Shown here piece by piece: positions 21,232-24,681 of a stretch of DNA of 64,000 bases. Both the position numbers and the translations under genes were made by a program. The notes under the pieces were generated by a model. That model had not been told where the DNA came from. It did not search any database and saw nothing but the letters and a program-made list of their open reading frames with translations. Position 1 is the first letter of the stretch. Each line of letters begins with the position of its first letter. Source of the DNA: Vezdaea acicularis. Its lineage: Eukaryota. The stretch lies in contig JAPEUI010000067.1 in assembly GCA_026025075.1 (NCBI GenBank), positions 1 through 64,000 on the forward strand. Reading direction: 5' to 3'.

Positions 21232-22631
21232 ATGACAGACAAACTCCCCCCCAACCTTCTCGCGCTCTTCGCTCCACGTCCTGGTTTGCGTTACATACCT
21301 GCCACTGATCATGCTCCGGAGACAAGATCAACAAGTCGCATCGACGGCGTCGCACAATATCTCGAAGCATTGAAGGCACCAAGTGAAGATTACGTGCCTA
21401 CGGAAAGCTGGCTCCAACGACGTGATCGAGTGAAAGCCGAGAAGAGGGAGAAGCAACAGAAGCTCGTTACAGAAGGAGTTTCAAACTGTGAGGGCGACCC
21501 GTCATGTCCTTATTCTTCTAATATTGTTCGTCCTGAGGCGGTCTATGCTAACATATGATCTTTTTTCTAGTTGATCCGAGTTCTGATCCACAAGTGAGAG
21601 GCGACAAATACAAGACGCTGTTCGTTGCGAGGTTAAGCTATGAAGCAAAAGAGTCGGATTTGGAGAGGGAATTTGGGCGGTTTGGTCCTATTGAACGCGT
21701 ATGTATCCTATCTTCGTTTGCCTTGGGCTTATTGATATTGACCGTGCTTGTTTTACAGATTCGGATAGTCACAGACACCCACCCTGACAGCAAAAAAGGA
21801 AAGAAGAAGCCCCACCGAGGTTACGCATTTATTGTCTATGAGCGAGAGAAAGATCTTAAAGCTGCATACAAAGAAACAAATGGTATACGTATCAAAGACC
21901 GAAGAGTATTGGTAGACGTGGAACGCGGTCGCACGGTCCCCGACTGGAGGCCTAGACGTTTCGGTGGTGGTAAGGGCGGACGTGGGTATACAAAAGCGGC
22001 ACCTCCCCGACCCGCCGCCCCAGGTGGATTCGGCCCGCCAGCCGGCCCTGGTGGCGGTTTACGTGGTGGGTTCAGAGGCGGCTTTGGCGGTGACCGAGGA
22101 GGTGGGTTCCGCGGCGGTAGGGGTGGATTCGGCCAACCAAGAGGTGGAATTGGCTACCAAGGCGGCGGGGGTTTCGGAGGTCGTGGTGGTTATGGTGGGT
22201 CTCCAAACGGATTCAGTAGCAGCGCACCGCCTCCCAACGCTCCATCTGGGCCTGGTGGTAGCGGGCGCTTTGGCAGCGACAGAGGCGGAGGAGGCGGCTT
22301 CGGCTCTGGTGGGTATGGCGGCGACGCTCCAAACGGCTCTGGCATAAATGGCGGTGGGTATGGCGACTCGAGAGGTGGCCGCTCATATGATGACAGGAAC
22401 TCGTCTTTCCGCGGCAGCAGAGGTTTTGGAGATCGCGGCGGTGATCCTCGAGGAGCGAGTGGAAGTAATCGTGAGCCGGTAAGACCCAGAGAGGATAGGG
22501 GATACGGCGACCGCGATCGAGACCGTGAGCGTGGCGGATACGGCGGGAGGTACAGAGACGAAGACAGCGGCAGGAAAAGACACCATGATGAAGATGGGTA
22601 TGACGACCACAGAAGTAAGCGACGGTACTAG
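21232..22631 (+). CDS. SNP1: U1 snRNP 70 kDa protein
   Basis: [18 protein letters not shown]-terminus; [13 protein letters not shown]...RGYAFIVY...[28 protein letters not shown]-rich tail; introns 21488-21570 and 21699-21758. Confidence 0.97.
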
Positions 22632-22709
22632 GCCTAGGAACCTCGATACTGGGTTTGTACCTTGGTGGGTCTCTTCTGGTACTTTTCATCATCATCATCC
22701 CTTTGTCAT

Positions 22710-23270
22710 CAAGGGTAAGGTCTACGTCTTCTCCACGGCTCTGGCGTATTTGTGTCAATCCTTCGACGTTTTTTTAGTGTTCTACCTTTTAGAACCCCTT
22801 TCAAGGTAATCCACTCCAGAAAGGCGCCATATCAAAAAGGTTCGATTACATCGAAGGTAAAACGCGAAATCTTCCTACTCTCGGTAGGTTGAGGCCGGCT
22901 CTATGCGTTTCTCGTTAAGAAAAGCTAGCTCTCGCCACGAGCTTATACGCCGAAGGTACACTTACACACCATTTCTCAAACTCCTCCGTGGTATACGATC
23001 AATTACAGTGATTCAAAGGTACAGAGTGCTGCTTGATATCTTAAGGTACACCAGATCGTCCCATGGCAAGGCGAAGGTAAAGGCCTCGTTTTCTCACAGC
23101 AGGTCACGCTGTCTTCACCAGACGATTCTCGAGAGAAATTTGCCTGTCGGCTTTCCCTAATCTTCTACTTCCTGTTTCACTTTCCCAGCTTCCTACTGGT
23201 GAGTATGTATTAAAAGCTCTCTGTATTTTGGGCCACGCGCTCGAGCGAGATAAGGTCACAGGTAAGACCT
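22710..23270 (+). promoter_or_regulatory. Array of 5'-splice-site-like (U1 snRNA-complementary) motifs in the U1-70K 3' region
   Basis: Six exact AAGGTA at 22803, 22854, 22953, 23016, 23043, 23074 plus GG|GTAAGG (~22712), CTG|GTGAGT (23196) and CAG|GTAAGA (23259). Confidence 0.7.
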
Positions 23271-23535
23271 TTGGCGATGTACTTGCTGCTGCTTCATCAA
23301 ATCTTGTATTATGGACTTACGGACGGGATGCAGTCACTGAGTAGGGATGCGAGGAAGAGGGCTGTAGCAATTTCAACATCATGTCTTTGATAGGCCTTCT
23401 TGTAGTTATGTACAATTGTTGGTTCTGTCTACTGCTATGATACTCATGAAGCCCGCCGTGCAAATCCTATACCTGCGCCGTACACCGGGTGTGCTTATTC
23501 TCCGACATTCTCCCCACCCTGTACTCATATCCGCC

Positions 23536-24351
23536 TCACGCCTCAACATCCATAGCCCCAACCTCCTTCACCTCCCCCGTTGCCGCCTCCCACCAGGCCA
23601 GCACCCTAACCCCAAACTCAGCTCTCTCCACCCCAAACACCCTCAACAACCTCGCCTGCTTCCCATCCAGCGTCTCGCCCTCTTTACAGACCGTGTAAGC
23701 ATTCTCCAATAGTATCTTTCCCTTCACAAGCCTACTCGGTACGCCCAACCCCCTAATCGTCGGCTCGAGGCTATGCGCTAGCGGCACGTCGTCTTCTGGC
23801 ATGACGGTCGTGGGGTTGCTATAGACCACGCCGGCCGGTAAGGTGAGTGTCAGGGGGGCGGGTGTGGATGTGCGTGATGGGGAGAAGGGGTGAAATGCGT
23901 CGAGGATAGGAAGGAGTGCGGTGGGAGGGAGGTGCGAGAAGAGGAGGGAGTTCTCGCCGTGTAGGTGCGCACTTAGTGATGAGAGGCCGGCGGCGTATTC
24001 GTCGGGCGGAGTGAGTCCAAGCGATTTCGCCATTACTTTTGTTTTGCCTAGAAAGAGCCTATTAGTTTCAATGGGTTAGCTGCCGATCATCTTTTCTTGC
24101 TTCGAGCGCTTAAGAGACGGATAAGAAGGAATAGAGAAGGGAATGGTCGGAGGTACGCACCGACTCCCTTCAAGCTCCTGCCGGATATCTTTGAGGTGCT
24201 TGTTACGCATGTTATCGACGGCGAAGACATAGGCGTAAGGATAAGTATCGGCGCAGTTGCGGATATCGCCGAAAAGCTTGAGAGCGTGCTCTTTGCCCTT
24301 TTTCTGAACCTTGGAGGTGGGTACTATGCGGGCGCGCTTGGATTTAGGCAT
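23536..24351 (-). CDS. MRT4: Ribosome assembly / mRNA turnover protein Mrt4
   Basis: MPKSKRARIV...FAVDNMRNKHLKDIR, LFLGKTKVMAKSLG, HSLEPTIRGLGVPSRLVKGKI, YTVCKEGETLDGKQARLL; one intron. Confidence 0.95.
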
Positions 24352-24681
24352 TGTTCTTGAGATGGCTGACTGAGGGAGGCCTATATCGTTTAGTCTTCCA
24401 GGCTGAGTTGCACCGAATTATTGAGTAAGAAGGGCCAATTAGGGGAAGGCAGAGAGAGCTGTGGGTTGGGATTTGCGGGGAGCTAGTGGGTCTTTTCGAG
24501 GGCGGCAGAATATTTTATGTGCGAGGCGGTGAGGAGCGGCAGAATACTTGAATCTTGACGCGCATTGCAGGATTACGTCTGGAAACATCACATGGCCAAA
24601 ACCCCTGGGCCAAACCTCGCAGTGCTTCTCTTCTGATTTATGCATTGCGCTAAGAATAAGAGTATTTGAACTTGAGCAGAT

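Follow-up and report, generated by a model that had tools for sequence, protein, structure and literature searches.

The sequence that follows the U1-70K stop codon in Pezizomycotina carries motifs of the 5' splice-site type that are far beyond chance in number, strand-specific, and conserved in kind and layout across classes. We consider it probable that these motifs serve as some form of U1 snRNP sensor with negative feedback on U1-70K and, from sequence comparison, we would give roughly an even chance to the narrower reading that the sensor lies in the U1-70K 3'UTR, works independently of splicing and lowers mRNA yield. The earlier interpretation of this DNA (hereafter the original prediction), in which the 3'UTR counts U1 snRNP, is partly supported.

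In the window (the whole 64-kb stretch of Vezdaea acicularis DNA that was analysed), the array sits within a 904-nt gap separating the ends of a U1-70K gene and an MRT4-type gene:

21232 to 22631, plus strand: U1-70K (Snp1-type) gene, from Pfam domains and the spliced reading frame
21232 to 21487, 21571 to 21698 and 21759 to 22631, plus strand: the three U1-70K exons, with the stop codon TAG at 22629 to 22631
23536 to 24354, minus strand: convergent MRT4-type gene, from Pfam Ribosomal_L10 and RL10P_insert

The gene upstream of the array had been called U1-70K from its sequence, and Pfam agrees, placing U1snRNP70_N in exon 1 (E 2.4e-26) and RRM_1 in exon 3. The spliced frame translates into 418 aa with a C-terminal KRRY, an ending common to 20 of the 22 aligned relatives, and the nearest named protein relatives are those of lichen-forming and other Pezizomycotina (83-86% identity over the RRM). 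Among the loci compared, the convergent MRT4 neighbour was found, besides the window, only in L039 and L053, and the gene downstream of U1-70K varies among lineages. Since the array is found behind U1-70K whichever gene comes next, we assign it to U1-70K rather than to MRT4, and an MRT4-related or promoter element was rejected on the same ground. In its source record, the U1-70K protein of Hypoxylon texense (P0106) bears the name 'mRNA turnover and ribosome assembly protein'; this label may have been carried over from an adjoining MRT4 gene, which would hint at a U1-70K/MRT4 pairing there. Elsewhere in the window, positions 2220-2440 contain (GTGC/GTGT) runs (2230-2260) and (GGATGT)n (approximately 2360-2400) in T-rich sequence with no obvious gene.

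Six exact AAGGTA hexamers were found on the plus strand 170-450 nt past the U1-70K stop (22803, 22854, 22953, 23016, 23043 and 23074), all where they had been reported, and direct reading of the sequence also located every one of the other donor-like sites listed with them between 22712 and 23259. The array thereby holds 6 of the 17 plus-strand AAGGTA copies in the 64 kb. With the background taken from the 31 copies on both strands of the rest of the window, lambda is 0.068 per 277 nt per strand, in agreement with the earlier estimate of about 0.07, and the Poisson probability of six or more copies is 1.3e-10. Markov-1 sequences built from the region itself contained at most three copies in 20000 simulations, and when all 4096 hexamers were counted on the plus strand, AAGGTA was the only non-simple, non-repetitive one with six copies in 280 nt. 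Over the 904-nt intergenic gap, AAGGTA occurs six times in sense and twice in antisense. Scored by contiguous matches to CAG|GTAAGT, the array contains five sense sites with at least six matches, one of them with eight, and it is the sole 600-nt window on either strand of the 64 kb to hold five sites with at least six contiguous U1-complementary positions (a fraction of 0.0004 of such windows). The 5' end of U1 snRNA used for this pairing is the sequence we take it to have, which may differ in the genome of this organism.

Other origins and classes of element were considered for the window array. Tandem duplication was rejected, since Tandem Repeats Finder returned no tandem repeat in the array and the flanks of the AAGGTA copies are unlike one another; repeat families there are only 9-13 nt long. 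A structured RNA or known RNA family was also rejected, as Rfam 15 gave no matches at gathering score in the whole window (hits within 22500-23650 were at chance level, E 0.7-1.6), and the fold of the whole UTR is not unusually stable (z -0.17).

The same enrichment was sought behind U1-70K orthologs in other Pezizomycotina and was clearly present, on the sense strand and in several lineages. A scan of metagenome contigs with an alignment of the last-exon RRM yielded 80 U1-70K loci, whose lineages were assigned by protein similarity only:

L006, L009, L010, L014, L016 and L019-L022: Pleosporales-like loci
L002: close to Microdochium and Hypoxylon
L039 and L053: of the three query proteins, that of Aspergillus is the closest match
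L003-L005, L008, L013 and L042: other Pezizomycotina-like lineages

Within 800 nt after the stop, 15 of 16 loci contained 3-6 sense sites (at least six contiguous matches to CAG|GTAAGT) vs. 0-2 antisense, the exception being L008 with one site on each strand. Summed over the 16 loci, some of which are near-duplicates, there were 68 sense and 14 antisense sites. In loci with at least 2.4 kb of flank the background was 0 to 0.6 sites per kb per strand, and in all 11 loci with flanks the richest 600-nt window of either strand was the sense strand right after the U1-70K stop. L039, L053 and L042 were likewise enriched on the sense strand after the stop, and other gene ends in the window and in these loci were without such clusters.

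An unbiased count of all 5-mers was then set against Markov-1 expectation in 13 lineages, with 700 nt from each. The five top words were the following:

GGTAA: 55 observed, 6.6 expected, present in 13 of 13 lineages
AGGTA: 47 observed, 7.1 expected, present in 13 of 13 lineages
GTAAG: 46 observed, 6.1 expected, present in 13 of 13 lineages
AAGGT: 42 observed, 9.2 expected, present in 13 of 13 lineages
GGGTA: 31 observed, 6.4 expected, present in 13 of 13 lineages

Joined together these read AAG|GTAAG; the enriched word is the 5' splice-site consensus itself. Sites anchored on GGTA numbered 102 in sense vs. 32 in antisense, and their flanks show a preference for A at -3, -2 and +4 and for G at +5, and none at +6. 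The favoured positions are those that pair with U1. When the nine Pleosporales-like 3' regions were aligned, several short invariant runs (AGGGTAAG, AGGT and GGT) were observed in the motifs, the mean column identity of the alignment being 43%, and AGGTG sites were likewise conserved. Taken together, the enrichment in orthologs and the identity of the consensus support the view that this is a selected element of U1-complementary type.

Marking of sites in 15 lineages and the alignment of nine Pleosporales-like 3' regions reveal a common layout, in which an element A near the stop is followed by a variable middle B and by a donor plus tandem, C. The corresponding parts of the window, together with two features close to the stop, are:

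22651 to 22670, plus strand: block near the stop, GGGTTTGT..GGTGGGT, from the sequence read directly
22656 to 22663, plus strand: TGTACCTT, 25 nt after the stop, the exact 8-nt complement of three AAGGTACA sites
22713 to 22720, plus strand: element A, GG|GTAAGG, at +82 with G+1 at 22715
22803 to 23079, plus strand: element B, six AAGGTA sites, each with U1 pairing over 5-6 positions (-2 to +3 or +4)
22837 to 23105, plus strand: weaker GT sites inside the array, AAGGTT at 22837, CG|GTAGG at 22882 and CAG|GTCA at 23100
23196 to 23208, plus strand: element C1, consensus donor CTG|GTGAGTATGT, with a GTGAGT donor
23252 to 23267, plus strand: element C2, tandem AAG|GTCACAG|GTAAGA, with AAG|GTCA at 23252 and CAG|GTAAGA at 23259

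From the block near the stop, GGGTTTGTC recurs in Pleosporales-like loci and GGTGGGTW is present in L039, L053, L002 and L013. The complementary octamer TGTACCTT is not common to all lineages, AAGGTTACCTCC being found in about the same position in Pleosporales-like loci; the octamer could mask array sites within the same RNA, or may be due to chance. Element A of the window has six contiguous positions complementary to the U1 5' end. The other lineages examined have GGGTAAG or GGTAAG, often doubled, between +75 and +165, with near matches only in L053 and L008, and the AGGGTAAG of element A is invariant in 9 of 9 aligned Pleosporales-like sequences. The element B sites of the window have no G at +5. 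Elsewhere element B consists of AAGGTA- or AAGGTG-type sites in variable number, and the AAAGGTACAG of the window (23015) corresponds to AAAGGTACAGC in Pleosporales-like loci. Element C takes the form, across lineages, of a strong donor cluster at about +430 to +640, with a tandem AGGTAAG..CAGGTAAG 10 to 60 nt later. Counterparts of C1 are GGGGTAAGTATGT in L039, GAGGGTAAGTAT in L053 and GGGTAGGTATGTAAGT in L009 and L006, and those of C2 are AAGGTAAGACCAGGTAAGG in L039 and AAGGTAAGGTTAACAGGTAAGGA in L019 and L016, with three such sites in L002. The second unit of the C2 tandem in the window pairs with U1 over 8 positions.

The array had been described as one of many weak donors, which is accurate for the six AAGGTA sites, with their 5-6 paired positions, but not for the parts shared with relatives, which in those relatives pair over 7-8 positions. 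On sequence grounds, the six AAGGTA copies are the lineage-variable middle of a larger conserved element, and what the classes have in common is GGGTAAG near +80, together with the strong donor and its tandem (23196-23267 in the window). A further block, TCCTCGCTTGRTGATCTTAC (L019:5310-5335), was observed after the tandem donors in most Pleosporales-like loci, and the window has GGACTTACGG at 23313-23322; TCCTCGCTTGRTGATCTTAC may act as a weak branch point, bind a protein or have a function linked to poly(A).

Two of the contigs, L058 and L022, derive from processed RNA, as the coding intron is absent from them. L058 corresponds to genomic L019 minus a bona fide 74-nt coding intron (GTACGA..CTAAC..TAG) and is otherwise colinear with it, and L022 corresponds to L010 minus a 54-nt intron, with an identity to L010 that falls from 100% to 87.5% after the junction, possibly reflecting a chimeric assembly. 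Both run ungapped through the 3' motifs, to +496 and +669, respectively, and no spliced 3'UTR form was found among these two intron-lacking contigs. The original prediction had stated that it would be refuted if every isoform were polyadenylated ahead of the array, and this is not the situation in these two relatives. L002 and L013, which may be transcripts, have uninterrupted reading frames, with 841 and 516 nt of 3' sequence. The contigs L058, L017, L018, L021, L022 and L013 end between +496 and +669, just past element C, and contig ends at +500 to +670 may mark the usual end of the transcript. The idea that contig ends near donors represent splicing isoforms was dropped, as the ends are not at exon-intron boundaries.

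In the splicing-independent sensor that we give even odds, the 3'UTR of U1-70K mRNA would hold many AAG|GTAAG-like sites with which the 5' end of U1 snRNA can base-pair and which would not be productive splice donors. Assembled U1 snRNP, itself containing U1-70K, would bind these sites on the nascent or nuclear transcript, and U1 bound with no productive splicing next to it would leave less exportable mRNA, because cleavage and polyadenylation would be hindered at a poly(A) site close by, because the transcript would be retained in the nucleus and degraded by the exosome, or for both reasons. More functional U1 would then result in less U1-70K synthesis, and the many sites could make this response graded or cooperative. 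We infer the U1 binding, the repression and the effector step alike. Several points weigh against this mechanism. The six AAGGTA sites pair with U1 over only 5-6 positions. U1-dependent poly(A) inhibition and 5' splice-site retention have been documented in animals, and our literature search turned up neither U1 involvement in 3'-end formation nor U1-type retention for filamentous fungi. Moreover, according to the available text of one study, a connector of early splicing factors to the exosome is conserved from human to yeast, but in budding yeast it contacts branch-site factors rather than U1 (PMC13322074).

The same sensor could instead have splicing as its output, which we regard as unlikely. 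Here U1 would activate one or more 3'UTR introns, and the resulting exon junction, more than 50 nt past the stop, would lead to NMD; the candidate introns in the window are 23262-23333 and 23199-23261, and the tandem donors would act in the manner of the vertebrate exon 7a switch. Element C does offer consensus donors (GTGAGT and CAG|GTAAGA) followed about 70 nt on by CTTAC..CAG in the window, GATCTTAC or a variant comes after the tandem in most Pleosporales-like loci, and all sites lie more than 55 nt past the stop. In Neurospora, EJC-dependent NMD operates through 3'UTR introns. The vertebrate precedent also operates via NMD, in the accessible portion of its description (PMC3798272). However, L058 and L022 are unspliced across the sites, although this is a weak point, as NMD would leave few copies of any spliced form. 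The candidates for branch point and acceptor are weak, and their placement is inconsistent (in L016 about 40 nt pass without an AG, and L019 reads CTTCC), and no conserved acceptor was found upstream of the sites in the nine-sequence alignment and the marked lineages. In addition, T follows GGTAAG in 4 of 38 cases in the ortholog 3' regions and +6 carries no information, unlike GTAAGT, which we take to be the consensus of real fungal introns. Selection against splicing is not claimed from the depletion of T at +6, GGTAAGT being equally rare elsewhere in the window (5 of 38).

Less probable still is that the sites are read by another RNA-binding protein, for example a GUA-recognising one of the Seb1/Nrd1 type directing 3'-end formation or termination, with the likeness to splice donors a coincidence. 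Seb1-type factors recognise GUA, every site contains GUA or GUG, and the sites are concentrated near what is probably the end of the transcript, several short contigs ending at +496 to +669. However, conservation reaches the A at -2, the G at -1 and the G at +5, and AGGTG sites are kept, a pattern that fits U1 pairing and not bare GUA. The absence of such clusters from the other gene ends in the window and loci also argues against a protein of this type, as does the fact that the host gene encodes a U1 protein.

We consider it very improbable that free U1-70K binds copies of the U1 stem-loop I loop in its own 3'UTR, in parallel to U1A. In the window, CGAAGGTA is found at three of the six sites and ATCGAAGGTA at one, sequences that presumably resemble this loop, but the bases before AGGT are not conserved in other lineages, CGAAGGT precedes no listed site in 15 ortholog loci, and the shared core is AAG|GTAAG in a UTR with no unusual structure (fold z -0.17). 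With CGAAGGTA confined to the window, the stem-loop I mimic was rejected on ortholog comparison. That the array is functionless, a product of chance or local base composition, is conceivable as a general possibility and has a negligible probability in our view, against a P of about 1e-10 in the window and strand-specific recurrence in 13 of 13 lineages.

Outside the fungi, the majority of U1-70K contigs had 0-2 sites downstream of the RRM, and plant-like contigs had no AGGTR or few. Among the cDNA-like U1-70K contigs of these other eukaryotes, 29 had 3'UTRs of 250 nt or longer; sense AGGTR exceeded 95% of simulations in 6 of the 29, and most had none. A poly(A)-tailed U1-70K transcript of an uncultured protist (L065:801-1757), whose nearest named relatives are about 55% identical, has six sense vs. 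zero antisense AGGTR in a 957-nt 3'UTR of 29% G+C. The simulation mean was 1.03, and the observed count was reached in 1 of 5000 simulations. Its relative L078 (814-1552) has four sense vs. zero antisense; in both, the sites are of CAGGTA type and sense only, in AT-rich 3'UTRs, and the displayed sites are identical over the stretch covered by both. L025, L068, L061 and L056 are further cDNA-like contigs with sense AGGTR above 95% of simulations and long 3'UTRs. Enrichment in non-fungal eukaryotes is a lead and not a result. We tentatively raise, as possible though on balance doubtful, a general U1 homeostat in which non-productive 5' splice-site arrays in the U1-70K mRNAs of distant eukaryotes would report functional U1, through the 3'UTR in filamentous fungi, intron 7 in vertebrates and the 3'UTR in at least one uncultured protist. 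If true, fungal arrays acting without splicing would be the first sign of a repressive role of U1, of the telescripting or retention type, in fungi.

How cells balance the U1 particle against its proteins has been outlined for vertebrates only. A conserved, sequence-defined array in the 3'UTR of a core spliceosome gene could offer a compact, mutable handle on this balance and on non-splicing roles of U1, in tractable fungi, as well as a natural, putative multi-site U1-binding element with which engineered gene silencing through U1 could be compared. The common layout could aid 3'UTR annotation, and it is a caution to gene predictors, which may place false introns behind U1-70K. A literature search, with subscription journals and supplements outside it, found no description of a fungal U1-70K 3'UTR array, and the array is not described in a survey of conserved fungal RNAs or in a U1-70K gene-family paper.

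Several known systems resemble the fungal array in part, the nearest being the donor cluster in intron 7 of vertebrate SNRNP70 and the U11 USSE. The U1A polyadenylation inhibition element is an snRNA-loop mimic bound by the free protein and, as in our proposal, a U1 protein is there autoregulated through its own 3'UTR. It differs in that a loop-mimic reading is unsupported for the fungal array, where no conserved copy of an snRNA loop was found, CGAAGGTA being absent from other lineages. U1 in the last exon has been said to block polyadenylation with U1-70K as the effector, reportedly in work by Gunderson in 1998. In the available text of later reports, a 5' splice-site motif in the terminal exon leads to nuclear retention or decay, or to a U1 block of polyadenylation (PMC9074902, PMC4380460, PMC5071671), and such motifs in mature mRNAs cause retention and decay via U1-70K and ZFC3H1 (PMC9074902). 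As described there, these cases share with our proposal a splicing-independent repression by last-exon U1 with U1-70K as effector, and they differ in concerning quality control, or viral or engineered sites, in animal cells and not an evolved multi-site feedback. The fungal sites have contiguous U1 complementarity across GT, which extends to 7-8 positions in the ortholog tandems with the U1 sequence assumed above, and in the relatives L058 and L022 they are unspliced in the last exon.

In the minor spliceosome, as the accessible text of one report describes it, nuclear retention results when U11 snRNP is bound to the USSE of the 65K 3'UTR, and cleavage and polyadenylation are inhibited by a conserved U1 site in the same 3'UTR (PMC5473595). 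The USSEs of U11-48K and U11/U12-65K are, like the fungal array, donor-like sites in the mRNA of an snRNP-specific protein, and in 65K they are also in the 3'UTR, where the cognate snRNP is a stand-alone regulator and unproductive isoforms are retained in the nucleus. In the same text, the USSE differs in having U12-type motifs read by U11 and in a retention that needs an upstream 3'UTR intron to be spliced (PMC5473595). The fungal motif is the U2-type AAG|GTAAG and no tandem U12-type sites were found, so that the relation is one of analogy. The USSE is known in animals and not in fungi, and the system also occurs in plants.

The control of vertebrate U1-70K depends on the binding of intact U1 snRNP to clustered cryptic 5' splice sites, as set out in the part of the study available (PMC3798272). 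This intron-7 switch of SNRNP70 resembles the fungal array in acting on the same gene through a conserved, non-productive 5' splice-site cluster and, as in the fungal proposal, functional U1 snRNP is the proposed input to a negative feedback on U1-70K. According to the same text, SNRNP70 differs in that three cryptic sites lie in an intron and activate an upstream alternative 3' splice site, giving exon 7a and NMD (PMC3798272). The fungal sites are greater in number, lie past the stop codon and lack a demonstrable acceptor to pair with; at least three cryptic 5' splice sites are conserved in the U1-70K gene here too, but no conserved acceptor that would make an intronic poison exon was found upstream of them. 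The likeness to SNRNP70 is one of kind and of gene. Decoy splice sites that bind an snRNP in the mRNA of an snRNP protein are thus already known, and it is their arrangement as an array in a fungal 3'UTR that is apparently new.
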